Shown here: positions 23,264 through 43,475 of the stretch, piece after piece
How positions within the stretch are numbered: the first letter of the stretch is position 1
How the letters are laid out: each line of letters begins with the position of its first letter
Source: a virus
Length of the DNA stretch: 64,000 nt
Virus record (IMG/VR): IMGVR_UViG_3300037479_000183
Direction: 5' to 3' (one strand)
Position numbers and translations under genes: made by a program
Notes under the pieces: generated by a model
What the model saw: the letters and a program-made list of their open reading frames with translations, nothing else
Database searches by the model: none
What the model was told of the DNA's origin: nothing

Positions 23264-25483
23264 TTAAAGAATACATCGTTGGGCCATCTCCTCTTTCTCG
23301 ACTAGCATAATCTTCAATACATCTTCAAGCGTTGTCACTCCAATAATGTGCGCTTTGAAATCGGTTGCGTTAACACAGGCGAGGCGGTTTTCTTCGGGGA
23401 GGATGATGGTGGGGATGTCGAACATCTCGGCCCCGCGAATCTTCGCTGTGATGCCACCAACTGGGCCGACTTCGATGCGGCCAGACTGGTTTAGCAATAT
23501 CTCGCCCGTAATGGCTATGTCTTGGCGAATGTATTTATTCTCAAATATGCTAGCTAGGGCGACGGCCATGGCCATGCCGGCCGATGGGCCATCGACGCCG
23601 TGTGTTTGTGAGAAGTCAACGTGAAGATACCACTCGCGCGGGTTAAGCTCGTAGCGATGGAACATTCCGGTGATTACCTTATCAACCGACTCCTTTGCCA
23701 TCGTTTGTAGATTGCCGGTATATTTCACGGTGCCGGATTTGTCCTTTACCTTATAGGCCATGACGCGAATGGGCATCACACTACCCACCTCTTCGTCTGC
23801 CGAAGTTGTAATGACTCCCAAACCATTGATACAGCCCTGTAGGCTGCCTCGGTTATAAACGTGTTTGTAAAGATTCCTCACTTCCGCCATCTGTTTAAGA
23901 CGTTGTAATTCAACGGAAATGGCCTTTTCAATTCCTTTCTTTACATCTTGAACGAGAACAACAGTTCTGCCCATCTTCCTTGCCCACTCACTGGCCTTGC
24001 TAAGCACTGCCAGAAGGGGCCGAAGCTGGATGGTAAGGCGGTTGCGGAAAGTGGCTCGACGCCTGCATTCCTCTACCACCTCAACAGCCGCCTCTCTTGA
24101 AAAGGGCAAAAGCTGTAGGCGGTCAGATTCATTCACGATGAATTTCACAATGCGGCGACGATTGAAGGCGGTGTTATCAACATGGCCATCCATCCAAACG
24201 TCGCTTCCATATCCCCTAAAGCGCTGCCGTAGAGCGGGGTGCATGCGCTGAATCGCATCCTCATTACCACAACCTATAAAGAAGAACGTGCAAGGGATGG
24301 GTTCTGTAGCTACGTTTAAGGCCGAAGTGCCAAGACGGCTTTTAGAGCGCGAAGTAATGGCGTATTGGCCCTCTTCAAGAACGGTTAGCAGGTCGGGAAC
24401 ATCGTCTTCGCCAATCTGATTAACTTCGTCGTAGAACAACACCCCCCAGTGCGCCCTGTGAATCGCCCCGGCCTTTACTCTAGTGTGGGGCGGTTCTCCC
24501 CCTGCCGCGCGAGTTTGAAGAGCGTCCCACTTGATATCACCCAACAGCGCTGCGCCAGATTGGCCCGAAGCGTCAATAAACTTGGGTTTGTTGTCACTAT
24601 TGTCTAAAAGAATCACAGGCGGGTCATTATCTGAACCTCTTATAATATTTTTAAAGAAGTAATACATCATCGGTGTTGTCATCATCACCCCAAGCCCGGC
24701 CGCTGTGATTAAGAACCCAAAAAACATTACTCCATTGAATAGTAAATATAAGCCATAAAGTAGCATACAGATGCCTAAAACGATTGCAAAGACAATAAAC
24801 ACTTTAATGAGTTTTTCTCGCACGAACTTTTGATATCCGCGCTGCTTTTCTGTGGCGTCGATAATCTCCTGACCAAGACCGCCGGGGACGGTGATGTGGC
24901 GGGGCCGGTTTTCATCAACGACGTTTGGAAGCATTAGGACATCGGGCGGCGAGATGCCCTCCCTTTCCAGCTTCTCCCTATAGCCTTTGGCAATTAGGGA
25001 TTTACCTGTGCCGGGTGGGCCGATAAGAAGACAATACACACCGACGTTGTTTAGCCTATCGCGGTCGGCGTTGCTTTTGGGGTCTTTCTTTGCCTGTTCT
25101 CCAATATGTTTTTGAGCGTGATAGATTTTCTCTCCGACGGTAAGCTTGTTCCACCAACCGCGTGTTTTCTTATCTTTCTTTCCTTCTCCATCATTATAAT
25201 ACTCATTCCAGTTCAAGACAAGGCGTTTGGTTCTATTCCAAAACTTTTCAAAGTCTTCCTTCTGCTTCTTCACTTTCCGAAGAAACTTCTGGAAGTTTAG
25301 GTCAAGGTCTTCAAGGCATTGTTCTTGACCAACAATCTGTTCTAAAATTGTCCTATCGGGTATGACTTCATCTGTAGTATCGAATTTTTGCCAACGAGAA
25401 TTGTCGTGGGCGCCATCGATAGTAAAGTAATCTGGGTCGTTTGGCTCAGGTATCCTTACGTCCGCTGTTACCTTTGTTGGCAT
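23264..25483 (-). CDS. lonB: ATP-dependent Lon protease, archaeal membrane-anchored LonB type
   Basis: Walker A GPPGTGKS, two TM helices inserted in the AAA+ domain, Walker B VLFYDEV, catalytic Ser in GVDGPSAGMA and Lys in GGITAK. Confidence 0.95.
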   Translation of the reverse strand: MPTKVTADVRIPEPNDPDYFTIDGAHDNSRWQKFDTTDEVIPDRTILEQIVGQEQCLEDLDLNFQKFLRKVKKQKEDFEKFWNRTKRLVLNWNEYYNDGEGKKDKKTRGWWNKLTVGEKIYHAQKHIGEQAKKDPKSNADRDRLNNVGVYCLLIGPPGTGKSLIAKGYREKLEREGISPPDVLMLPNVVDENRPRHITVPGGLGQEIIDATEKQRGYQKFVREKLIKVFIVFAIVLGICMLLYGLYLLFNGVMFFGFLITAAGLGVMMTTPMMYYFFKNIIRGSDNDPPVILLDNSDNKPKFIDASGQSGAALLGDIKWDALQTRAAGGEPPHTRVKAGAIHRAHWGVLFYDEVNQIGEDDVPDLLTVLEEGQYAITSRSKSRLGTSALNVATEPIPCTFFFIGCGNEDAIQRMHPALRQRFRGYGSDVWMDGHVDNTAFNRRRIVKFIVNESDRLQLLPFSREAAVEVVEECRRRATFRNRLTIQLRPLLAVLSKASEWARKMGRTVVLVQDVKKGIEKAISVELQRLKQMAEVRNLYKHVYNRGSLQGCINGLGVITTSADEEVGSVMPIRVMAYKVKDKSGTVKYTGNLQTMAKESVDKVITGMFHRYELNPREWYLHVDFSQTHGVDGPSAGMAMAVALASIFENKYIRQDIAITGEILLNQSGRIEVGPVGGITAKIRGAEMFDIPTIILPEENRLACVNATDFKAHIIGVTTLEDVLKIMLVEKEEMAQRCIL

Positions 25484-26071
25484 TTTGAGCCTTCCATTTG
25501 TTGTATGAGTTGGTAAACATACCAACAATTCCACCGACTGCTAAAGCTACCAGATAATTACCGGTAATGGCCAGAACTACAAGCCACAAAATTGTGCCCG
25601 TGGCAATTGAGACTATCCATCCCTTAAAGCTAGCAAATAGGTGCCCAACAAAAGTTTTTGGAGGCTCCTTTGATTCTATCTCCTTCTCATCCACATCGAT
25701 TCCAGGCATGCCTAACCCTCTTTTGGTGCCCACCGCTTTATCGCATACCAAACGATTCCGAGGCCAATTAGGCCAAATCCGGCCGCTAGCATTACAAGGT
25801 TATTCATTGCGGCCGCCGTTGTGACAAGACCAAGGCCAGTTGTAACCAAAGTCACTTCACCAACATGCTCCTTTGCTGTATCCATTAGTCCCATTTTTTC
25901 CACCTTTTTGTCTATGTTTTTATCTTCACGGGTAAGTTCGCCAATCTTTACACTAATATCTAGTAGAGCGTCCCAGATGTGAGCGAGGTGATTTTTCTCA
26001 ATTGTGTCGAGACGGCCATTAATAGATGCTACATCTTTACGAATTTCTTTAATGTCGTCTTCGACCGCCAT
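25446..26071 (-). CDS. Two small membrane proteins (25446-25751, 25712-26071), holin-like topology
   Basis: Each has two C-terminal TM helices; 25712-26071 begins with a coiled coil containing IEKNHLAHI. Confidence 0.6.
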
Positions 26072-27319
26072 TTACTCACCCGGCAAACCGCCTCCAATCC
26101 TACCTGGAACTGGGATGAAGTTTTGTCCTTCATCTTCGATATCCAATTCGTCTTGGAAGAACTCGCGGCTGATTGCGCCACCGCTATACATTTCAAGAAG
26201 GAGCCGGGCGCGGAAGCGATATTCGGAGTCGGAGAGGTTCCATACAAACTCCACATCGGCGTCGTCGCCTAGTAACATAGGCAAAAGCTCGGTATCAATC
26301 AAGTATTTGATTTTGTTCTTTAGACGCTTCAGCCCCCGGCTTACGAACAAATCCTGAACTTCTGGCTCAACACCACCCTCTGCCCCATAGACAGAAGTGG
26401 CTATGTTGAAGTTAAGCATAATGATGGACATAAGTGGAGAGATGAGGTCGATAACGGGGAGGTTCAAACCCGAACCCCTTCCTCCACCCGCGCTGAGCAT
26501 TTCAACTCTGTGGCGATTGTCCAACACATAGTTAGTTGACGCGCTTACAATTGAATGTAACATATCGCTAAATTCGCGGATGGTGTTTTCCTTTTCTGTA
26601 TCGTTTGGAACAGATTCAAGGTCAAGGTAGGCGACCACGGGGGCGTAGGCGGCACGCTTGATAGCTTGGAGAATATCTCCCGCTGCGTCAAACAGCCCCC
26701 AAATCAGGGGTAGGTTAGGTCTAAAGAGCGAGATTCCGTAATAGCTGCTGCCCAAATCTAGAAGTTTGAAGTGAACAACATCGTCTGCATTTAGGTTAGT
26801 TTTCTGGCGCTGGGCGGGAGTTTTATAGGCATCCTGATACATCTTGCCATCTTGATAGAAGAACACAGTCGCGCCGTGGAGGTCTTGAATTTCGAGATTG
26901 TCGCCCGAGCCGGTTCGGTGGAGGTAGCCGTTGCCATAGATAATGGCGTGACCAACAGCGCGTTCAAGTTTAGGTTCTATTTTGTGCTGCCGCCACATTA
27001 GTTTTGCCTTAGCAATAGCATTTTTATCACCTTCAAAATGATAGCCGGGGCCAAATATTGCATCGTCCAATCCCTTAAAGAGGAAATTGGCGATGGCGTT
27101 TGTAAGCATTAGTTTAGAATATTCTTGATAAAGCTCTGGTTCCGCAAGTTTCCACATCTTGCGAAAGCGTTCTGTATCGTAAACCGAAAAATAATCACTC
27201 CAGGTTTTTTGAAGATTAATGGGGAACTTCTTCTCCCGAAGCTCCATTGACTTACTATCAACATTGGCCGCGCCAATAGCAAAACTTGGCGGCCTGTTGA
27301 CCTCTCTAAAACCTAGCAT
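26072..27319 (-). CDS. Portal protein
   Basis: 415 aa; AIIYGNGYLH, DDVVHFKL..SYYGISLFRP and final GAISREFFQDELDI are typical portal features; position downstream of terminase. Confidence 0.88.
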   Translation of the reverse strand: MLGFREVNRPPSFAIGAANVDSKSMELREKKFPINLQKTWSDYFSVYDTERFRKMWKLAEPELYQEYSKLMLTNAIANFLFKGLDDAIFGPGYHFEGDKNAIAKAKLMWRQHKIEPKLERAVGHAIIYGNGYLHRTGSGDNLEIQDLHGATVFFYQDGKMYQDAYKTPAQRQKTNLNADDVVHFKLLDLGSSYYGISLFRPNLPLIWGLFDAAGDILQAIKRAAYAPVVAYLDLESVPNDTEKENTIREFSDMLHSIVSASTNYVLDNRHRVEMLSAGGGRGSGLNLPVIDLISPLMSIIMLNFNIATSVYGAEGGVEPEVQDLFVSRGLKRLKNKIKYLIDTELLPMLLGDDADVEFVWNLSDSEYRFRARLLLEMYSGGAISREFFQDELDIEDEGQNFIPVPGRIGGGLPGE

Positions 27320-29901: not shown

Positions 29902-31506
29902 CTAAAATTTCCTCACTTTAAAACTTGGCTTACTCATCTGGCGGCGGATTGTAAGCGAAAGCATCGCGCACGCGAAGGCCAAATCCTTAAAGGCGTTTTT
30001 GATTTCGTTTAATTGGATATATTGCTTATGCGTGCCGACCATTTTGGATTCAAGTTGGTTATGTTGTGTGATGAATTCAGAATAAAACTTCTGTGTCAGC
30101 TCATCCCCTTCGTCCCCTGTGCCCGTGCCACGCGGGATGATGAACTTTCCCATCGACATCACAGCGCGGTGATTTTTCCACATTTCATCGTTGGAGGCGT
30201 CGGAGGCCACATAGCCGGTCTTATCGCGGTTGTCTGGCGGGTGCCAGATTTGCGGCTTCATAATCGGATTGGCACCTTCTGTGAAATACGGCAGCAATTT
30301 ATCCTGCCCCGCCGAGAAGTCGGGTATGAGTTTCCAACACCCCGCCCTGTGAAACAACTCCTTCACGATATCAACCTGCAGGGGCCAGTCTAGAATGCCA
30401 TCCTTGGGGTCAAGACGTTTCCAATATACAACGTGAAGGCGGCCGTCGATGGGTTCGGCGATGATTATTTCGGTTCTATCATGTAATCTTGCCCAATCAA
30501 CCGCCATGACAAAACCTCTCTCTGGGGCATGAGGGAGGGTGGCGTCGGTATAGAGAGAGTAGTTACCAATTGCCCCACTAGCACAGCTTACTAGCAGGCC
30601 GTGGGGGAAGTAACGGCCAGATTCGGTGGGGAATTTGGCGTTAAACTCCATGTCGATTTCGTCAGATGTCATTCTTGACATCCATTCGATGATTTCTTCA
30701 AACTTTACACAGCCCTCGTCTACCCCTCTTTCCCAACCAAGGCGGTAAACGATGCGGTCGGCCTTGCCATCCCACTCTTCTACCATCTTTCCAAGCTCGG
30801 GATTCCATTTGAGATTGGGGGTTCCAAGAAGCATAAGGCGCTTGTCTCCGTAGGCAGAAAGCAAAAATGGGGCAACAATAACGTGGAACATCTCCCTTTC
30901 AAGGCGCTGACACTCATCAACAACCACGCTGCCGCTTCCACCACGAATCAGTTCTCCCTTAGAAGCAAGTCCGATTGTAAGATTATCAAATCTAGCGCCG
31001 TTTTTTAGCTCAATTCTATCCCAATTCACCACGCCTTCGCCCGCCACGTATTCATTATAAAGGATGGGATTGTCCTCTAGATGACGCCGCACCCTCCGAT
31101 ATACCTGGTCTTGCCCTTTTGTGGGCGAAATACAGTTCCAATGGCGGAAATTGTTGCGCAAAGCGTCCCAAAGGATGTAGGCGGCGTGAACGGTGGATTT
31201 TCCAGTCTGACGACAAGCGAAGGTCATAGATTTGCGCTTATCCTGAACTTGTTCAAACCATTCAAGCTGCCAGGGCGCTAAAAGAAGTGGGTTTCCCTCG
31301 TCATCCGTAAGATAGTAGGCACAAAATGCAGGAAAATCTTCCAAAAGCCTGCCATGAAGCTCGGCGTTGGTGGTCGAGAGGTCAAAGTGCCTCACAAGGC
31401 GGTGGTAGATTTTTAATCGCATTAGATATTGTGGTTCGGTGGTCGCGGTTTGAATGAGTTTTATGATTTGTTTCTCGCGCGCTATGGGCGAAAACTCTTC
31501 TGGCAT
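29902..31506 (-). CDS. terL: Terminase large subunit
   Basis: Walker A CRQTGKST, Walker B VVVDECQ, C-motif LLGTP, RNase H-like nuclease AVDWARLHD, final D in FKDLAFACAM. Confidence 0.95.
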   Translation of the reverse strand: MPEEFSPIAREKQIIKLIQTATTEPQYLMRLKIYHRLVRHFDLSTTNAELHGRLLEDFPAFCAYYLTDDEGNPLLLAPWQLEWFEQVQDKRKSMTFACRQTGKSTVHAAYILWDALRNNFRHWNCISPTKGQDQVYRRVRRHLEDNPILYNEYVAGEGVVNWDRIELKNGARFDNLTIGLASKGELIRGGSGSVVVDECQRLEREMFHVIVAPFLLSAYGDKRLMLLGTPNLKWNPELGKMVEEWDGKADRIVYRLGWERGVDEGCVKFEEIIEWMSRMTSDEIDMEFNAKFPTESGRYFPHGLLVSCASGAIGNYSLYTDATLPHAPERGFVMAVDWARLHDRTEIIIAEPIDGRLHVVYWKRLDPKDGILDWPLQVDIVKELFHRAGCWKLIPDFSAGQDKLLPYFTEGANPIMKPQIWHPPDNRDKTGYVASDASNDEMWKNHRAVMSMGKFIIPRGTGTGDEGDELTQKFYSEFITQHNQLESKMVGTHKQYIQLNEIKNAFKDLAFACAMLSLTIRRQMSKPSFKVRKF

Positions 31507-35100: not shown

Positions 35101-35755
35101 TGGCCTCAAAGCCCGGGCCTGGCTCGGCCAACACAGCGCGCGCGGGCGTTTTTACGATTTCAATGTCGACATCTACGTATTTTTCATCTGTCATTTTTAT
35201 TCACTCGTTTTTATAAATATCATACGCTTGTGTTTCATCAAACTTAATGTTGTGGTTTCTAAGTAGGGTTTGAAGATAGTCGAACTTGTCTTGGCCGCAG
35301 CGGACACAGAAGGGGTCAATTTCATAGTCTCTATCCCAATAATGTTCTGGGCAGTGGGCTTGACAATAAAGAACTAGATTGGGCGCTCTGACAATCCATC
35401 CGCCGCTATATCCTCCACATTCTGAACATTTGTTTTGAAGAGCGGTTTTGCATTTCTCACAGAATAGTTTGGGGGTGTGGATAACATAAGAGGTTTTCTT
35501 CAAAACTGGCTCCCCACATCTCCCACACTTCCCTACCATCTTCCCACCCTCATGGCATTCCCAGCAGATGATGTCTTTCAAATCCACATCTTCAGGCTTC
35601 CAGTTTAGATGGACGAAAATGCCCGCCCGGCTACACTGCCCGCAGGCCACTTGACCGTGCCATAGACCATCCGCGCCCTGTGTAAAATCAACCATCATTA
35701 GCCTCTTGGCTGACAAGCAACGCATCCTTACAGGCCTTACACGCCAGTGTGACAA
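32092..35755 (-). CDS. Block of about 12 small hypothetical ORFs upstream of terminase, several with Zn ribbons (e.g. 33504-33713, 34710-34973, 35201-35755)
   Basis: Contiguous, overlapping minus-strand ORFs in the track; multiple CxxC pairs. Confidence 0.6.
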
Positions 35756-35883
35756 ACTCCGCGCCTTGCCAGATGATATAGATATAGCTGGGCTTGGCCT
35801 GGCAATGCCAGCAGGTTGTTGGGCTGGGCCGCTTCTCTACGCGAAGCATTCTTTCTAATAAGTCTTAAGTATATATTCGCGGG

Positions 35884-36090
35884 CTAGTATATAAAGGTTC
35901 CGGCCGCGCCGGGCCCTAACGGACGTGGGCCTGCCAGGCCTATAGGCAGGGGGCCTAGGCCTGGCCGGGCCTTACATATGCGGGTTCCCGTATAGTTAAC
36001 ACAGCGCGCTCTTGACTGTTGTGGGAAGAACCCACTGTAGTATATTTCCAGAAGAGTATCTCCGTTAGGCGGGTTTCCTTTATATACTAG
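35884..36090. promoter_or_regulatory. Divergent TATA pair forming a perfect 14-bp inverted repeat
   Basis: CTAGTATATAAAGG at 35884-35897 and its exact reverse complement CCTTTATATACTAG at 36077-36090. Confidence 0.75.
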
Positions 36091-36983
36091 GCACAGAAAC
36101 GCGTATAAAACTACAATTTTGCAGAAATAACCACAAAAATCGCCCAAACGTCGTTTCCCTCGTGTTCGGAAAAATCCTGCGCGCCTGTGAAAAAATTCAT
36201 CTATAATCGCACAGAATGCCATTAGATGCGTTCCAGCTGACCAAACCACCAACATCCTAATAAGCTTCCGCCCCACAAAAATCTTTAAGGTGGATTGCCC
36301 CGACCCACGCTCTCAAAACGACTCGCTAGCCCCCCTAGGGGCGTTTTACAAATGTAAAGGGGAAAGGAAAGGGGGAAAGGCTAGGGTGTCCATTCCCTAG
36401 CGTCATAGGGGGTCGCAACCCACTTGCTTTTGTTCCACGGGCCACGCCGCCCCACCCGGCCACCGTCGGCTAGCGTCAGGCTTGAGCCTTCTTCCCTCGC
36501 CGGAAAGATGATTCCCGCGAAGCCCACTCCAAGCCCCGTTTCCACGGCTACCGTTTCTGGGCAGGCCCGGCCCCGATGATAGGTTCGGACGTGATAGGGG
36601 CATCGGTTGTAGCCTGTTTCGTTCCTGCGCTTCTGCCACGCATCCATATAGCAGGATGGACAAATCTTTGTAAGCCCATCCCGCCCGCACCTGTCGCACT
36701 TCACCAATTGCGTCATAGACTCCAATACTCGCCTGACCATATATAGTTTGTGTCGCCCAGCCGACACTTATATACCCCATCTACGAAAATCGTAGTCGCC
36801 CCACATATATAAACTTTTGCCTAGCCCGGCTCGGCCCTGCCGCCGTCAGACAGGCGGCTGACGAGCGTCAGACTTCATCTTCGTCGTCCCAATCGCCCGA
36901 TTCGTCGTAGGCATCGTAGTGGTCAGAGTCCTTCCCGCCCTTTTCCTGCGCCTTTGGGGTCATAGACCTTAATGGGGGTCAGG

Positions 36984-39671
36984 GTATATAAAGTTTTGTC
37001 CGATGGGTGAAACTACTCAAAAACGCGTAAGGGGGAAGGGGGGCGTCAGACAAACGTCCTACGCCTGTCTGTCAAACTCCTGCTCTAGTTCCTCCTTCAA
37101 ACTGGCTTGAAGTTCCGCCATCGCTCGGGATGCCTTCATTCGCGTTAGGTAGAAACCCAACTGGTCGGCCAGTTCCCCAAGACTCTTGAGTTCCGCCATC
37201 GCCCTTGCCATCGCCTCATTCATCAACGCCTCATCGTCCATATACCTCAATGGTCGTCAAAGTATATGAAGTTTTACCCCATCGGTGAAAGTTTGCGACC
37301 CAAAGGGGTTTACCACCACCCGCTAGACGTTCCACGCTTCACGGCAATCTCCGCGCTTACCGCCAAGCACCGTGCCATCCCGATGGCGTTAACCGCCACC
37401 GCCTTCTTCGCCTGCCACTCGGGGCAATCGCGCATCCCGCCCCAACCCAATTCCGCGTATTCGTCGCATATCTCGCACATAGACCCCAATAGGTCGGTGG
37501 GGTATATAATCTTTTGCCCTATGAGTGAAAGACTCCACCCGGCGCGCGTCTATATAAATCTTTGCCTGCTCGCAACAGCGGGCGCTGTGATAAACTTTAT
37601 GTAGTAGCGCAAATCGGCCAGCGGGCTGGGCTTATAAAACTTTCCCTGCCCGCCGTAGGTTCTCCTCTCTCGTTACCTGCTCTAAATGCTCTGGGTTGAC
37701 GCAGAAGGTTCGGCGGCATAGGTGGTCAAGAGTCAGGCCCGGCCTGATAGGCCCGGCTAGCAACTCATATATGAATCTATGCCCAATGCGAACCGCCCCG
37801 TTTGCCCAAATCGCGGCGTAGCCGTGTCTCTCCGCGCCGCCCCAAATCCAGCAAGGCGTAGCCAGAGAGCCGCGATAGCGGCGTATCTTCCGCCTCACTC
37901 GCTCCGGCAATTCTCGGTAGTCCATCTTTTCACCTGCTACCCCATTCGCCTCAAGGCATATAAAGATTTGCTCGATGAGTGAAAGTAACATCGATTGGCA
38001 AAACTTGATATAGTTACACAGCGCGGCGCTGGGCGGGCGTGGGGTATATAAAACTTTGCTCGTCGGCCTGTCGGCTGACGGAAGATGGAAGCGGCGTCGG
38101 ACGGGCGTCCGACTAGTGGAGAATACCCAACCGAAGCAGGTTGTCCAGAATGAGTCCCCGCGTTCCGAACAGCAACTCCAACTTCCTCTGCTGGACGTAT
38201 TGCCTGTATTGCGGAAGCGACTTCATTTCGTCGATAATCTCCTGAAGTTTCGCTTCCTCTGCCGCCGCCTTTGCCTTTGCGAATTGCTCCTCGGTTATTC
38301 CGCTCATACTACCCCATACCCATCGGGGCACATATACTTTTCCCTTCCGCGACGCCATCGCCCGCATATATAAACTTATGCGTCAAAGTCGCATTGGCCG
38401 CGTGGCTTCTGTGTTCGCCAGCAAACTTGAATTGCTCCGTTTGTATCAAAGCGCAGACTGATAGGCGCACCACAAACACAATGCCCATAGGCGCATCGCC
38501 AGCCTTGTGTGAGATACGCGCCGCATAGGTCGCATCGCATAGGTGCTAATGGCTCTGTGGGTATATAAAATTATGCTTCAAGGCGAAGGCGCTCCGGGCG
38601 CTATATAAAGTTATGCTCCCGCGCCGCTGTGAAAACTTTTATATAGAAACGCAAAACGGAAATGGGAGGAAGGATATAAAGGTTTGCCTCACAAGCCCGC
38701 CGCCTTCAACACTAAGGCGACGATTGGCCCGGCCAGCAGGCACAGAAGAAGGTATATAAAGATTTGTCTCTCAAACTCCTCGGGCGGCGCTCGGGTGAAC
38801 ACGGTTACCACCCTTCCGCGTATCGCTCGCGCCACGCCGCGAAGTCGCTATCCTCACCGTCGCCGCGCCACTCCGACGTATCGACCGCGAACAACTCGCC
38901 CGCCGGGTCGCGCACCTGCGACCCTGCGTAGTGTATCATTCCCGCCGCCGTCTTGCCCTTCGCGTCTATCACCAGCATTGGTTTCACCTACCCCTTAATG
39001 GTCGCCGTAGTATATCAACTTTTCCCCAATGAGTGAAAGTTTGATAGGCATATAAAAGTTTGCCTACCAGCCGTCGCGGGCGATACATTCGCCGCACCCA
39101 AAGGTGCGGGAAGGGTGTTTCTCGGCGTGAAGGCGGCGCTTCAACTCCTTCTTGGTTTCCGCCATCAGCCGGGCCGCGTCATCGGCGCATACGTCGCAAA
39201 GCGCCACCTTTAGAACCTCAACATCCTCCTCAATCGAGGTTTCCATCGGGTTCCTTGGCGCGATGCTTGGCGCAACCGGATTGACGTAAAGCGCCCTCAA
39301 CTCACCGCACTCCGCGCAGGTTCCGTAGCCCTTTATCACGTTCAATTCCACTTTCATCTTTTTACACCTCACCCTGCTATGGTCGTCGCGGTATATGAAG
39401 TTATGCTCCATTGGTGAAAGTAAAAAAAGGCCCGCCACCGTTCTACTTCTTCTTCGGCGGCGGCACCAACTCTCGCGCGGGCGGCGCGTTTCGCGTCCAG
39501 AACGAAACGTAGTGGTCGAACCGCGCGGCTATCTCCGCTTGCGTTCCGCCCTTCTTTTCGCACCACTCGCGCAACTCTCGAAGTCGTCTTTCGTAGGCAC
39601 TCTCTCCTATGGGGCTCACCATACCACCTCAACAACATCGAAGTATATAAAGTTTTACACAATGAGTGAAA
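36984..39671 (-). promoter_or_regulatory. Seven archaeal-type promoters, each with an upstream TTTCAC(T/C)(C/G/A)AT motif at fixed spacing
   Basis: Plus-strand AT(G/C/T)(A/G)GTGAAA at 37003, 37281, 37521, 37975, 39029, 39410 and 39662, each 19 bp from the G preceding (T/C)ATAT(A/G/C)A. Confidence 0.8.
37632..37925 (-). CDS. HNH endonuclease (HNH_3-like)
   Basis: CWIW..GY..HRFIYELLAGPI..LDHLCRRTFCVNPEHLEQVTREENLRR. Confidence 0.92.
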   Translation of the reverse strand: MDYRELPERVRRKIRRYRGSLATPCWIWGGAERHGYAAIWANGAVRIGHRFIYELLAGPIRPGLTLDHLCRRTFCVNPEHLEQVTREENLRRAGKVL

Positions 39672-39680
39672 CTACTCAAA

Positions 39681-39706
39681 AATGAAAAATGGGGGCCGAA
39701 GCCCCC
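39681..39706 (-). terminator. Hairpin terminator with a cUUCGg tetraloop
   Basis: Minus strand GGGGGC-TTCG-GCCCCC followed by ATTTTTCATTTTT, just after the stop at 39719. Confidence 0.7.
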
Positions 39707-40405
39707 TTGCCGCCCGGCCTAGCCGGTGGCCCGCTTGATGGCTTTTAGGATGGCGGCCTGCTTTGCCTTCTTGCTCGCCTTCTTTGGCAAGCCTAGCGAA
39801 GCGGGCCAAAGGCCCGACTCCTTGGCCCGCCTGCCAATCCCCGCGACGGGGACGATAGGCGCGGCGGCCTGCTCCTTCCGCCTTCCGTCCTCAACTCCGG
39901 TCGTCCGAAGGTCGTCATCGCTGATGTCGTGTTCGGCGTTGAAGTCGGGCAACTCGCCCGTCGCCTGCGGCCCGCGCCCGGCCCGGCCCTTGGGGGCCGC
40001 CTCTAGCCACGGCTTCAACTCCGGCGCGAAGGTGTCCGTTGGCTTCGGCGCTCGCTTCACGACATAGGCAATCAACTCCTTCTCCTGCTTGGTTGTCATA
40101 GACCCCAGTAGGCGTCCCAACTATAAATAGTTTTACACAGCGCGCCCTTCGCCCCGGACGGTATATAAAGATTTGCCCTATATGAACTTTTGCCCGCCCG
40201 CCGCCCGGCCCGCATATATAAACTTATGCCCAGCCCGGCCTGCCGCAAGCCTTATATAGAAGGGCAAATCGGTTTTCCGGGCCGATATATAAAGCTTTGC
40301 CCAGCCCATCCGTCCGCCCGCCGTCAGACACTCGCCGCGCCTGTGTCAGACAAACATAAGACGCAGAAGAATTAAAGGGAAGAAGGAAAAGTCGGCTTAG
40401 ACTCG

Positions 40406-41824
40406 CTACTTTCGAGTCTTTTTCGACTTGCGGGCCTTGGGCTTGCCCTTCCCGCGCTTCGGCTTCTTTTGTGCTCGCACGGCTTCGCACTTGGCGCAAC
40501 AACACCAAAGCTTAGGCCGCCTGACGTGAAGCCCCAAGACGGCGAAGCATCCTTCCGGCTTCTGTGGGTTCGGCTTCGACGGAAGGCACCACTCCACGCC
40601 GGGGCAATGGGCCGCCTGATGCTTGCGGTTTCTCGCCCGCAACTTGGTGATGCTTCCCGGTTTCTCCCGTTCAAGCACCAACCAAGACGTCGGTATCTTC
40701 CGGTCGATTGGCGAGAGGACGCCGTGAAGGGTTCCGCGCTTCCCTTCCACGTCATACGCGATGCTCCCATCCTCTAGGTTGATGGCAGATACCCTTACTT
40801 GCCCCCAGAGGTCGCGTAGTCCCTTCGGGCCGGGCGAAGGCATCCGACTTAGGGCGGCGTCATAGACGATTTGCCTTCCCGTCTTGTTTGCGTTTCGTGC
40901 GCGGTGAAGGTTCGCCACAATCCACGCCGGAACGTCGGTAAGGCGCACCTTACGCAACTCCGCCGCTATCTTAGGGTGTCCAATCCTCTCAAGCCACCCT
41001 TCGACCTTCCGCCCCGTTTGGGTCGCATCGACGCCCGCAAGCACTCGCCGGAACCTCTTGATGCTTCCCGCCGCCGCCACCTTGGGGATGGGTTGGCCCG
41101 CAAGATAGGCGAGGGGTCGCCCTTGAGGGGCGGCGATTGCGTAGATGCGTCGGTCTGCTTGCTGGCCCGCCAAGCCTTCGGCCAAGGCCGCCGCTTCTTC
41201 GGCGTCAAAGTCGCCTTCATTGTCGGCTAGGATGGCTTTGGCCCTCTCGCCCGCCGCGTCTAGGCCGCGTTCCGCCAAGTAATCGACGGTTCCATCATCG
41301 GCACTAGCGTGTATGTTGGCGGTTTCTTCCCACTCCACGCCAAGCACTTTACCGCCGTTCATCGGCACGTCAGCCGAGCACCTGACGACACTTCGACGCC
41401 CGACGCTTACCGAATGGTCACAACCGGGGCGAGAGCATTTCGTCATATCGTCCTTACTCTCTAGCCGAGAGCAACGGCTAACGACAAACGACTCCGTGCT
41501 TCGCACTTCGCGGTTAGTGTTGATGCTAACCCACTTGCCATCTACTAGCTTCCCGCCCTTCTTGGCGTCCTTTACCGCCTTCGCGTAGATGGCGGCGAAA
41601 GGCACCGTTTCATCTTTCGGGATGCGGGCCTTGGCCTGAAGCACCGTCGCCTTCCAGCCTTCGGGGCTTGGCGTGATTATCACGCGGCCCTCTCGCGCAA
41701 GGGCGGCGGCGGTTCGCGGGAACCACTCGCCCGATTTCGCTTTCGACGTAGCCGCTACCAACACAGCCACTAGCAAGCACAGCGGCCCGAGTCCTGCTAG
41801 CGCGCTTCCGATTTCTGCCGACAT
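40406..41824 (-). CDS. 472-aa basic hypothetical protein with Cys/His clusters
   Basis: Long ORF with an AGGTG RBS, upstream TATA cluster and downstream TTTCCTTCTT tract. Confidence 0.7.
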   Translation of the reverse strand: MSAEIGSALAGLGPLCLLVAVLVAATSKAKSGEWFPRTAAALAREGRVIITPSPEGWKATVLQAKARIPKDETVPFAAIYAKAVKDAKKGGKLVDGKWVSINTNREVRSTESFVVSRCSRLESKDDMTKCSRPGCDHSVSVGRRSVVRCSADVPMNGGKVLGVEWEETANIHASADDGTVDYLAERGLDAAGERAKAILADNEGDFDAEEAAALAEGLAGQQADRRIYAIAAPQGRPLAYLAGQPIPKVAAAGSIKRFRRVLAGVDATQTGRKVEGWLERIGHPKIAAELRKVRLTDVPAWIVANLHRARNANKTGRQIVYDAALSRMPSPGPKGLRDLWGQVRVSAINLEDGSIAYDVEGKRGTLHGVLSPIDRKIPTSWLVLEREKPGSITKLRARNRKHQAAHCPGVEWCLPSKPNPQKPEGCFAVLGLHVRRPKLWCCCAKCEAVRAQKKPKRGKGKPKARKSKKTRK

Positions 41825-42084
41825 ACTTAGGCACCTCTGACGACGATAGGCGGTATGAGTATAAATAGATTTGCCCGCCGCCCGACGTAGGCCCGCAGGC
41901 CGCCTTCGCCCGCGCCGATATATAAACTTCTCCCCTATATAAACTTATGCCTGCCTGCCCGTCGTCCATTTGTGAGAACAACGCTTACGAATATAAACTT
42001 TTGCCCGTCCGACACTCGCCCGCGCTGTGTCCGACACCCATCAGCCAAGCCCGGCCTGCCTGTCAGACAAATGGCGGCCCGGCC

Positions 42085-42180
42085 TGTTATATAAACTTAT
42101 GCTCTTTACATTTGTAAAGTTATATTCAAATGGTTTTTATAAAAATGTTACAATATTAATTTTACAATTGTAAAGTTGGA
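42085..42180. promoter_or_regulatory. AT-rich island with palindromes; candidate replication origin or operator cluster
   Basis: TTTACATTTGTAAA 42105-42118, TTTTTATAAAAA 42134-42145 and TTTACAATTGTAAA 42161-42174, inside GC-rich flanks. Confidence 0.5.
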
Positions 42181-43475
42181 GCGTCAGACAATCGTCAGAA
42201 TAAGCGACTTTTATAATAATCACAGAATCCGACTAACTGCGTTCCGGGATTTTACGTCAAGACTTGACGATTCGGTATTTAAACCAATCGGCGGGCCTTT
42301 TCGTCGCCGCTAGAGATGTCTGACAGTGAAAATCGTTTTTCCACAGTCTTTCGACGGTCGCCGCCAAGGGCTAGGGCTTCCCCTAGTCAGGGGCGGGCCG
42401 CCCGTTAGTCGTCGGGCGCTTCAGGCCCATTCCCGTTAGGGGGCAAATGACTCTGACGGAAGCCTTCGGCTTCTGCTGAAACAGTCCCCCGAGGGAATCC
42501 GTAGCGATGCGGATTCGGCGCTTCCGAAAGAAAACGGATTCGTCGGAATCGACCTGAAGGTAAACAAAGGTATAGGCTGGAAATGAGCCAGCCTGCCATC
42601 CCGCAAGAGAGGTGCGAAATGTCGCCCAATCTTGGCCTTGACGATTCATTTTCGTGGCTAGAGGGATTACCAGAACGCCACCATATCCCCCGGAACGGAA
42701 AGGCCCGGCCTCGGACTCGGAGGCCGCAAGCGTTCCGTTCTGAGCAGTATACCATTTTGGGGATACTGCTGGCCCAATAGTAGAGAGGCCCGGCAATACT
42801 GCCCGGCCAATGGGCCTGATTGGGGGTCAGCGGAGCATTGACCGGCCCCGCCATCGCGCAAGCCCGTAAGGGCTGGCCGGCCAATTGTAAGAGCGCCCTA
42901 TCAGGACTCGGCGGCTAGGCAGGCCGGAAGCAGGCAACCGGGCCGAGCGTTTTTTGGTGGGCAGGCGTGGGTGTTTATAAAGGCTTAGACCCCACCCTAA
43001 CGGATTCGGAAGTAAACAGGGTATTTAAACTACCCGCCCGCCTAGGCACCTCGCCGGGCCTTGCCCAACAGGGCTTGCCCGGCCTTTCCTTTTATGGCAA
43101 GCATAAATGAAATCGTCGAGGCCATCCACGCGGCTTGCCGTCAGGCGGCCATACCGGAGGCCAAAGGCGGGCTTGGCGAGGACTTGGCATACCAAGTCTT
43201 GCTTCGCTTGCTTGGGGACTTCGGCAAAGCGGCCAAAAGGCGGTATGCCGCGATGGAGTGGGAGAGGCCGATTATCGTCGGCCTTGGGTTGGAAGCCTGT
43301 ATCGGTTGAAACCGGGCTCGGCTACTAACGGACACAGCACGGTGATTTACTCTTACCGTTAGGCGGCTAAGGCCGCCAAAAGTCGCAGACTTTATGCTTA
43401 ACGATGGGCCGGGTCGGTTCTTCGTTAAGAAAGTCCCCGGTGGGGACTTAGTGCCAAAACACGGAGCGTGCGAAA

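Follow-up and report, generated by a model that had tools for sequence, protein, structure and literature searches.

Stacked BRE-TATA-type boxes ahead of small genes as candidate early promoters of an uncultured tailed archaeal virus

Introduction

Repeated promoter sequences have been described for several archaeal viruses. For SIRV2 and 56 other archaeal viruses, a conserved strong BRE/TATA motif is established before small early genes, which are thought to be shut off later by a regulator (Bhoobalan-Chitty et al., 2024, PMC11065993). In the case of HGTV-1, a promoter motif precedes the majority of the small ORFs (Sencilo et al., 2013, after the summary in PMC3950731). The intergenic repeats of HF2 were identified as promoters by reporter assays and primer extension; BRE and TATA lie where they would be expected in such promoters, some of the repeats are bidirectional, and counter-transcripts occur (Russ, Pfeiffer and Dyall-Smith, 2021, PMC8707807). 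T4-type phages have PeSL units, repeated composites of an early promoter and a terminator that lie beside small variable early genes (PMC2839356, PMC4122927).

The locus described here is located at positions 35884-42100 of a 64-kb window, i.e., the whole stretch of 64,000 nucleotides that was analyzed (IMG/VR record IMGVR_UViG_3300037479_000183), which stems from an uncultured tailed archaeal virus. It probably belongs to the same known kind as the early-promoter cassettes of SIRV2, HF2 and HGTV-1, and what is new is the stacking, an arrangement known from this one genome. With the SIRV2 type it shares a very similar strong BRE and TATA (TTTAWATA) before many small, mostly single, unrelated ORFans; however, one motif per gene is described in the accessible part of that report and two to five stacked boxes per unit were found here, and, with the same limit on the source, pairs of boxes facing each other and two promoter classes are present only here (PMC11065993). 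In addition, the virus is tailed and its host is no crenarchaeal thermophile. The repeated intergenic promoter sequences of HF2 are a further likeness, but its 77-kb genome has nine repeats of 29 or 58 bp, which are unstacked and each head a transcript (PMC8707807). Like the composite units of T4-type phages, regulatory sequence is common to unrelated genes, but those units combine a stem-loop with early promoters of the bacterial sigma-70 type, a recombination role has been proposed for them, and stacking is no hallmark (PMC2839356, PMC4122927). HGTV-1, likewise a tailed virus of archaea, carries tRNA genes, and its BRE-plus-TATA motif has the same layout and a fixed short distance to small genes. 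Its genome (KC292026) contains about 35 motifs in 100 kb, compared to about 5 boxes per kb here; neighbouring motifs are separated by at least 184 nt, each unit has a single one, and same-direction stacks are absent. Strong promoters in series that serve one transcription unit are represented by the early promoters A1-A2-A3 of T7 and by the tandem rRNA promoters of Halobacterium, which feed units that must win host polymerase quickly. In these cases a single stack is present per genome or operon, in contrast to seven multi-promoter units within 5 kb here.

Results

An initial annotation had counted about 30 BRE-TATA elements by eye in about 6 kb of otherwise GC-rich DNA. The boxes were quantified with a position weight matrix (PWM) of 20 columns, which was derived from the window's own boxes. 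On the strand of the genes, positions 35884-42100 contained 28, 26 and 22 matches at thresholds of at least 14, 17 and 20 bits, respectively, versus 3, 1 and 0 on the opposite strand, and first-order Markov simulations of the region gave means of 0.04, 0.01 and 0.0. All 28 strong matches shared the orientation of the genes, and the number of leftward boxes rose to 30 when a weaker box at 35886 was counted, which gives 28-30 co-oriented boxes within 35886-42103 at a chance expectation of about zero. The IUPAC pattern GCAWANNTTTATATA matched 25 times in the 64-kb window with at most one mismatch (0.2 expected), including 12 exact copies, and 24 of the 25 matches fell into 36806-42102. The stretch with boxes measures 5.3 kb, and about 30 of them accompany only 12-13 small genes. 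Thus, the count made by eye was confirmed, all its clusters (38560/38601/38673/38752, 40161/40179/40213/40286 and 41857/41917/41936/41991/42087) coincided with PWM matches, and the GC content of the box region is indeed elevated (53-60% versus 44-50% in most of the window).

The minus-strand box sequence is GGCAWANNTTTATATA, and the consensus derived from the PWM of the window is GGGCAAAAG+TTTATATA. The TATA part has the consensus TTTATATA and is of the TTTAWATA type, and all of its eight positions carry 0.7-1.6 bits. Two nucleotides upstream of it, at the purine-rich position of the TFB-recognition element, a G-C-A-w-A block is conserved, while the "GGGC" portion reaches past a minimal BRE. 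The strongest TBP/TFB-binding consensus that was selected from DNA of the methanogen M. jannaschii is MRCCGAAAAG+TWTATATA, in which 19-24 bp separate the TATA from the initiator; the viral box closely resembles it, and its BRE part is like the extended BRE of that consensus (PMC2602779) and like the HGTV-1 motif. Consensus and counts together support the claim of the initial annotation that BRE-TATA-type elements far outnumber the genes.

Eleven leftward small genes span 36868-41824. They comprise ORFs of 31 aa (36868-36963), 60 aa (37059-37241), 56 aa (37310-37480), 64 aa (38113-38307), 54 aa (38376-38540), 57 aa (38805-38978), 97 aa (39064-39357), 59 aa (39443-39622), 126 aa (39719-40099) and 472 aa (40406-41824) and an HNH endonuclease gene (37632-37925). 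The latter is the only box-led gene with a family match, and the others are ORFans. The 59-aa ORF appeared helix-turn-helix-like by eye; a Pfam match was not obtained for it.

Twelve to thirteen boxes are located 21-36 nt ahead of a start codon, and the estimate of about 12 genes was borne out by 12 boxes with an ATG ORF of 31-472 aa that starts 21-35 nt downstream. In seven genes the sequence T|ATG follows exactly 21-22 nt after the TATA, and in four genes a ribosome-binding site begins about 22 nt after it. These distances are compatible with the start expected of an archaeal promoter, at a pyrimidine-purine step some 22-27 nt past the TATA centre. Seven of the boxes, designated class A, are slightly weaker and have an upstream element, TTTCACYNAT, which occurs exactly seven times and has the same box offset each time. 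These leftward cassettes are found 21 nt before the ATG of the 31-aa ORF (36985-37012, with the upstream element at 37003-37012), the 60-aa ORF (37263-37290) and the 59-aa ORF (39644-39671), 22 nt before that of the 56-aa ORF (37503-37530), 31 nt before that of the HNH endonuclease gene (37957-37984, with a ribosome-binding site in the short leader), 32 nt before that of the 57-aa ORF (39011-39038), and 34 nt before that of the 97-aa ORF (39392-39419). A run of five to seven T lies directly ahead of three of the seven cassettes and at the same time downstream of three genes: a terminator-like T5 run after the 60-aa gene (37019-37023), a T7 run after the 59-aa gene (39422-39428), and, after the 126-aa gene, a GC hairpin of 6 bp with two T5 runs behind it (39678-39706, all minus strand), which is the only hairpin associated with a class A cassette.

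About 20 consensus boxes, designated class B, are near-ideal and lack the upstream element. They are often stacked, and neither a T run nor a stem-loop terminator is attached to them. Two leftward class B boxes are gene-proximal, i.e., 36806-36821 (25 nt before the ATG of ORF 36403-36780, the coding status of which is doubtful) and 38562-38577 (21 nt before that of the 54-aa ORF). The remaining gene-proximal boxes deviate from the consensus: 35886-35901 has a good TATA and a poor BRE and precedes a 53-aa ORF (35688-35849) by about 36 nt, 38329-38344 is weak and lies 21 nt before the ATG of the 64-aa ORF, and variant TATA sequences are present at 40122-40137 (22 nt before the ATG of the 126-aa ORF) and 41860-41875 (35 nt before that of the 472-aa ORF).

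The other 16-17 boxes are surplus in the sense that they have no ORF of their own, in agreement with the earlier observation that many boxes lack a downstream ORF; a micro-ORF behind each box was thus not found for this group, and the sole ORF behind any of them, at 41990, is out-of-frame and implausible. Each has another box 17-98 nt downstream of it, points in the direction of a real gene and reads into that gene. Single surplus class B boxes were found on the minus strand at 37551-37566 (48 nt upstream of box 37503), 37631-37646, 38045-38060, 38367-38382 (38 nt upstream of 38329), 38602-38617 (40 nt upstream of 38562), 38673-38688, 38753-38768, 39049-39064 (38 nt upstream of 39011), 40215-40230, 40286-40301, 41990-42005 and, outermost, 42088-42103. 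Doublets with a distance of 17 nt are present at 40162-40194 (boxes 40162 and 40179) and 41919-41951 (boxes 41919 and 41936). The PWM also recognized a leftward box-like site within the HNH gene (37768-37783). The mean score of the surplus boxes was about 22.7 bits versus about 22.0 bits for the gene-proximal boxes. Runs of at least five T were found between none of the surplus boxes and its gene, and a conserved sequence downstream of the surplus boxes was not found outside the five face-to-face pairs described below. TRF detected no tandem repeat with box periodicity; therefore the spacers are unrelated, and thus the stacks are not recent duplications.

Five leftward boxes are confronted by an oppositely oriented box at a distance of 27-32 nt. 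The rightward partners are a TATA at 36767-36774 (31 nt from box 36806) and boxes at 37586-37603 (27 nt from 37631), 37998-38012 (32 nt from 38045), 38631-38645 (27 nt from 38673) and 40243-40258 (27 nt from 40286), and the pairs share a composite repeat, about 75 nt long, in which short T runs occur. Another rightward TATA (36077-36090) is a perfect 14-nt inverted copy of 35884-35897, to which it is arranged back-to-back at a distance of 179 nt.

The leftward regulatory regions of the 126-aa gene (40100-40360) and the 472-aa gene (41825-42050) are paralogous, the doublet 41919/41936 corresponding to 40162/40179 and box 41990 to 40286. Their alignment contained 84 gap columns in spacers versus 10 in boxes, and the identity was 81% in boxes versus 74% in spacers. 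The genes behind these two regions, the one pair compared, are unrelated to each other. A 15-nt palindrome (36345-36359) marks the left boundary of the box-rich module, and two further copies (42105-42119 and 42161-42175) lie within an AT-rich divergent region, which adjoins the outermost box. The GC skew changes its sign in this palindrome region, coincident with a switch in gene orientation.

The LonB protein of the virus has the archaeal LonB lid domain, its best 80 matches among species genomes are nearly all from Bathyarchaeia, and every named database match is archaeal. Judged indirectly from these similarities the host is archaeal, and the LonB gene, the one gene used for host assignment, groups with Bathyarchaeia. 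In Bathyarchaeal genomes the spacing from TATA to TATG is 20-21 nt, the same geometry as that of the viral boxes, and the distance from TATA to the 5' end of tRNAs is 25-26 nt. Exact copies of the box were not found in five Bathyarchaeia genomes of the candidate host lineage (8.7 Mb), and therefore the box is not simply the usual host promoter. The tRNA promoters of these genomes have another TATA variant.

Discussion

The boxes are probably archaeal core promoters of host type for early genes, stacked two to five per unit. TBP, TFB and RNA polymerase of the host would read the TFB-recognition element followed by the TATA box, and the leftward boxes would drive the early small-gene module. Boxes with a spacing of 21-22 nt are predicted to yield leaderless mRNAs that initiate at the A of the conserved T|ATG, and other proximal boxes would yield leaders of 10-13 nt that open with a ribosome-binding site. 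A purely leaderless model leaves unexplained a GGT-containing element, which resembles a ribosome-binding site and precedes the "leaderless" start codons by 3-4 nt; it holds a constant distance to the TATA (18-21 nt) and not to the ATG, and longer leaders bear a second, proper ribosome-binding site besides it. The 16-17 surplus boxes would be extra promoters that transcribe into the same genes from 17-98 nt further upstream and may let limiting initiation factors enter a unit at several points of high affinity. Class A is probably under the control of a regulator and class B is probably constitutive and active right after genome entry, so some genes would gain one unregulated and one regulated promoter. 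Boxes 36-40 nt apart have no room for two full initiation complexes simultaneously, and the 17-nt doublets are probably too tight even for two TBP/TFB pairs. Since close boxes exclude simultaneous complexes, stacking is not a simple multiplier of firing. In this account, the binding of TBP and TFB, the start sites, the timing and any gain from stacking are deduced from the sequence.

Alternatively, the surplus high-affinity boxes could be decoys that soak up or hold host TBP/TFB and depress early host transcription. Such a sponge would fit to 12 exact copies in 5.3 kb of virus versus none in 8.7 Mb of the five Bathyarchaeia, to viral boxes nearer the ideal consensus than anything in these genomes, to the many boxes without own gene, and to boxes that are kept while spacers drift; according to the M. 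jannaschii study, maximal binding is not what natural sites are normally selected for (PMC2602779). However, all surplus boxes are co-oriented with a gene and read into it, whereas a pure decoy would need neither orientation nor exclusive placement upstream of genes; 28 sites per genome make the effect dependent on copy number, as for every strong-promoter virus, and a precedent was not found in the literature. Sequestration is regarded as rather improbable, and stacked promoters explain the surplus boxes more simply, given their co-orientation and their reading into genes. The two ideas are not exclusive alternatives: any strong promoter titrates factors, and titration would be a by-product of the stacked promoters. 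It is also unlikely that stacks and facing pairs form a purpose-built trap and switch, which would concentrate TBP/TFB on the viral genome, starve the host and insulate units by the facing pairs; the convergent pairs, unable to both carry an initiation complex, would then act as interference switches or roadblocks. Unlikely, too, is a role as recombination cassettes of the PeSL type, in which promoter(-terminator) repeats shuffle small early genes and surplus boxes are neutral leftovers. T-run terminators directly before three class A cassettes (one with hairpin), paralogous regulatory regions that lead unrelated genes, the ORFan nature of the genes, the composites of T4-type phages, and such an interpretation of the similar HGTV-1 motif (PMC3950731) are consistent with it, but homologous exchange between two boxes would leave one box and no stack, the surplus boxes are undegraded and score equal to gene-proximal boxes, and unrelated spacers speak against recent duplication. 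It is compatible with stacked promoters, and both may be true.

The cassettes could also be promoters of a bacterial phage, with the upstream element as -35, the end of the TATA as -10, a 17-nt spacer between them and, further downstream, a ribosome-binding site in a short leader. Indeed, a sigma-70 scan flagged three class A cassettes (TTCACT or TTCACC, 17 nt, TATACT), purine-rich GGT motifs precede start codons, and one hairpin-plus-T terminator is present. Yet the scan flagged only these three, each with 9 of 12 positions, the last -10 position is C and not T in four of the seven cassettes, and the class B boxes, about 20 in number, lack a -35-like element; the archaeal pattern is seen in the conservation of all eight positions of the TATA and of a block that lies 2 nt upstream, the GGT element is spaced from the TATA, with separate ribosome-binding sites in longer leaders, and LonB is of the archaeal type. 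Bacterial promoters are thus very unlikely. The short non-coding RNAs suggested by the initial annotation would be produced one from each surplus box, with antisense or interfering transcripts from the facing pairs. This idea could build on the shared composite repeat of these five pairs and on the long counter-transcripts known in HF2 (PMC8707807), but it was not upheld and appears highly improbable: T runs of at least five before the genes are missing, the predicted long leaders had no unusual structure (z -0.5 to -1.5), an Rfam search gave no match, and sequence conservation downstream of surplus boxes is confined to the pairs. There is an equally slim chance that the boxes are iterons or other sites for a viral protein in replication origin, partition or packaging. 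The position of the outermost stack beside the AT-rich palindromic region where the GC skew flips and the "GGGC" part, which exceeds a minimal BRE, would agree with such sites; however, the boxes occur throughout 5.3 kb and keep a fixed distance to start codons, an Orc1/Cdc6 or Rep domain was not found in the ORFs neighbouring the box region, and the skew switch falls together with the switch in gene orientation.

Should the boxes be ordinary promoters only, they would provide a useful annotation and nothing beyond. Almost nothing is known about transcription takeover by tailed viruses of uncultured archaea, e.g., Bathyarchaeia, and the locus is a compact natural series with one to five near-ideal promoters per gene, with or without an upstream control element. 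It makes accessible to archaeal in vitro systems, which already exist, the questions whether promoter multiplicity raises output, whether neighbouring sites compete or cooperate for TBP/TFB, and whether such an array can depress host transcription. In practice, the box consensus also allows early genes, some of them possibly anti-defence genes, to be searched for in related viruses from metagenomes.

Gene layout of the window

The gene content of the window reads as that of a tailed virus. Its structural genes form a leftward module at about 0.4–32 kb, which includes the terminase (29902–31506), the portal (26072–27319) and a LonB-type protease (23264–25534). It is followed by leftward small genes up to about 42.1 kb, by an AT-rich divergent region and by a rightward module that encodes three tRNAs, an amidoligase, a glutaminase, an RNA ligase and a NADAR protein. 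The GC3 of the early small genes (36868–41824) was 0.64–0.83, with the exception of 38376–38540 (0.47), compared with 0.48–0.55 in five large reference genes (terminase, portal, LonB and two of the rightward module). This unlike composition could reflect a separate origin of the module or a different codon adaptation.

Promoter-type boxes outnumber the genes behind them

A word of 16–20 nt, the minus-strand reading of which is GGCAWANNTTTATATA, recurs in the region of the early small genes. An iterated position weight matrix (PWM) gave 28 matches of at least 14 bits on the minus strand between 36806 and 42088 and three on the opposite strand, while Markov simulations of the box region yielded a mean of at most 0.04 matches. 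An IUPAC pattern with at most one mismatch had 25 matches in the window, of which 12 were exact, versus 0.2 expected, and 24 of the 25 were inside 36.8–42.1 kb. Counting a weaker box at 35886, the leftward boxes number 30. The count of about 30, the coordinates and the clusters of the initial annotation were borne out. At 35884–36090, two TATA boxes that point outward and lie 179 nt apart are perfect inverted copies of each other over 14 nt, and the very GC-rich stretch between them has its own 16-nt hairpin arms (35927–35942 and 35956–35971).

For 12 boxes, an ATG ORF of 31–472 aa starts 21–35 nt past the TATA, and most of these ORFs have the GC-by-codon-position skew expected of coding; by this measure the coding status of 36403–36780 and 38376–38540 is doubtful. 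No plausible ORF at promoter distance was found for the other 16–17 boxes. This ruled out a micro-ORF behind every box, and therefore the proposed surplus of boxes over genes is real. The HNH endonuclease gene (37632–37925) is the one box-linked gene with a family match, and Pfam and PHROGs gave no match for any other small ORF. A good box of about 20 bits lies within the HNH gene in the same orientation (37768–37783); it may act as an internal promoter or match by chance. Among 5.8 billion clustered proteins, the 472-aa protein (40406–41824) had no homologue besides itself, with the one occurrence on a 69,261-bp contig. Its ORF has a hydrophobic segment at the N terminus, clusters of cysteines and a tail rich in lysine and arginine.

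In seven genes T|ATG is conserved and the start lies exactly 21–22 nt past the TATA, as in leaderless archaeal mRNAs. In four genes the start is at 31–35 nt and a canonical ribosome-binding site begins about 22 nt past the TATA, implying leaders of 10–13 nt. A GGT-containing element is present 18–21 nt past the TATA in both groups. Because its position is tied to the promoter and not to the start codon, we infer that it belongs to the initiation region or to a duplicated cassette and does not serve the leaderless genes as their working ribosome-binding site.

Two classes of boxes, stacks and face-to-face pairs

Two classes of boxes were distinguished. In the seven class A cassettes, each directly followed by a gene, the element TTTCACYNAT precedes, always at the same offset, a box that falls slightly short of the consensus, and all of its exactly seven copies in the window belong to these cassettes. 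The about 20 class B boxes are devoid of the element and are nearer to the consensus than class A. The multi-box units number seven: five boxes each precede the 472-aa gene and the 126-aa gene (39719–40099), four the 54-aa gene and two the 64-aa gene, and the 56-aa, HNH and 57-aa genes each have class B upstream of the class A cassette. Preferred box spacings are 36–40 nt (six cases), 71–80 nt (four) and 17 nt (two doublets). Of the surplus boxes, that is, boxes upstream of another box and without an ORF of their own, five face an oppositely oriented box at 27–32 nt, and each of these face-to-face pairs sits in a common composite repeat of about 75 nt.

Two further repeated elements were observed. 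The 15-nt palindrome TTTACAWWTGTAAAG has only three copies in the window (36345–36359, 42105–42119 and 42161–42175), versus 0.09 expected; they flank the box-rich, GC-rich module, two of them inside the AT-rich divergent region. The palindrome has the look of a dimeric regulator's operator, and its half-site is similar to the class A upstream element. GTCAGAC/GTCCGAC words are repeated at 36844–36873, 37044–37071, 40322–40351, 42006–42036, 42061–42068 and 42182–42200, often paired 22–23 nt apart, at the distal end of promoter stacks just past the preceding gene. The copies at 40321–40360 and 42005–42044 are 78% identical over 40 nt. A regulator may bind these repeats, or they may form a terminator structure.

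Archaeal layout of the boxes and probable host domain

Conservation of the boxes extends over every one of the eight positions of the TATA and over a G-C-A-w-A block that lies two bases upstream, and by its sequence this layout is archaeal BRE-plus-TATA. The strongest TBP/TFB binders of M. jannaschii have the extended BRE MRCCGAAAAG, the TATA TWTATATA and 19–24 bp to the initiator, and the viral box consensus is close to them (PMC2602779). It is very improbable that the class A cassettes are bacterial sigma-70 promoters. A sigma-70 scan does flag three of them as a −35-like and a −10-like hexamer spaced by 17 nt; however, about 20 boxes have no −35 at all, the key last T is often missing from the −10 candidate, the conservation pattern is archaeal, and the sole lineage-informative gene points to archaea.

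The viral LonB protein contains the archaeal LonB lid domain, and its named database relatives are all archaeal. In a search of 185,579 species genomes, nearly all of the best 80 LonB matches were Bathyarchaeia, with 30–35% identity. A LonB relative at 71% (protein P0002) sits on a 7-kb contig. At the Bathyarchaeal LonB-match loci, the TATG of a conserved gene is preceded by a TATA at 20–21 nt, a geometry suggestive of leaderless transcription in this archaeal class. The orthologous gene near LonB keeps this promoter in four Bathyarchaeal genomes (L112, L115, L125 and L146). In front of Bathyarchaeal tRNA genes, an AGAAA-type BRE is separated by two to three bases from a CTTAAATA-type TATA, which lies 25–26 nt before the mature 5′ end; the architecture is therefore the same as in the viral box, although with a different TATA variant. 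Structural-module genes of the virus (21334, 22624 and 27343, minus strand) have a TATA variant upstream that differs from that of the boxes, TTACTTAAATA, which resembles the Bathyarchaeia tRNA promoters, yet lies only about 11–20 nt before the start codons.

Five Bathyarchaeal genomes (8.7 Mb) contained 25 one-mismatch box matches and no exact match, not more than the reversed-pattern control; the box is thus not enriched in these genomes and not a common cellular word there. The viral early boxes would thus be "better than host" promoters, as described for early genes of other archaeal viruses (PMC11065993).

Possible roles of the surplus boxes

The PWM scores of the surplus boxes were equal to those of the gene-proximal boxes, which lie 21–36 nt before a start codon. 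Tandem Repeats Finder detected no repeat with the box period; the stacks are thus not recent tandem duplications, and their spacers are unrelated. The 126-aa and 472-aa genes have paralogous regulatory regions, both with a distal repeat element, a distal box, a 17-nt doublet, a conserved spacer block and a proximal variant box. The two proteins are unrelated. In the alignment of these regions, which lies within one genome and supplies all the conservation evidence, 84 gap columns fell into spacers and 10 into boxes.

Inside the array, minus-strand runs of at least five T occur at three intergenic places only, each just past a gene and just before a class A cassette, one with a GC hairpin. No surplus box is followed by such a run, the usual archaeal signal, before the next gene begins, and surplus boxes would therefore read into the downstream gene and not yield short RNAs of their own. 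The long leaders predicted for them were not unusual in stability and Rfam gave no match in the region, ruling out structured leaders or known RNA families. The short non-coding RNAs of the initial annotation are thus not supported.

Judged from the sequence, the boxes are probably real host-type early promoters, with the surplus representing promoter stacking. That the surplus boxes are neutral leftovers of recombination seems unlikely. A dedicated TBP/TFB sponge, also suggested initially from the box excess, appears quite unlikely; no description of such a DNA sponge in archaeal viruses was found in the literature searched. These and the other readings are partly compatible with one another. 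All functional statements are inferences drawn from one genome, and no relative with the early region was retrieved.

Relatives and comparison with known archaeal virus promoters

Terminase-based searches yielded no relative in IMG/VR or species genomes. Against phages, tblastn gave two remote matches only and blastn of the region none. The class A cassette pattern had no match in IMG/VR and 23 single matches without an array in metagenomes, consistent with chance. The tandem-box pattern gave 78 single IMG/VR matches, mostly on AT-rich contigs, with at most four PWM matches in any one locus, and the array was present in none of the LonB-bearing IMG/VR contigs. Among the loci retrieved, the one with most PWM matches, four on one strand, was the contig L022 (IMGVR_UViG_3300035205_000413; 8 kb, 40% GC).

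Conserved strong promoters ahead of many small early genes are established for SIRV2 and other archaeal viruses (PMC11065993), for HF2, the intergenic repeats of which are proven promoters (PMC8707807), and for HGTV-1, the motif of which has been likened to the PeSL cassettes of T4 (PMC3950731). In the 100 kb of HGTV-1 examined, about 35 motifs were found, one per unit, with same-direction gaps never below 184 nt. New in the window virus are the density of its boxes, at about 5 per kb, their stacking, their division into two classes and the pairs of boxes that face each other.
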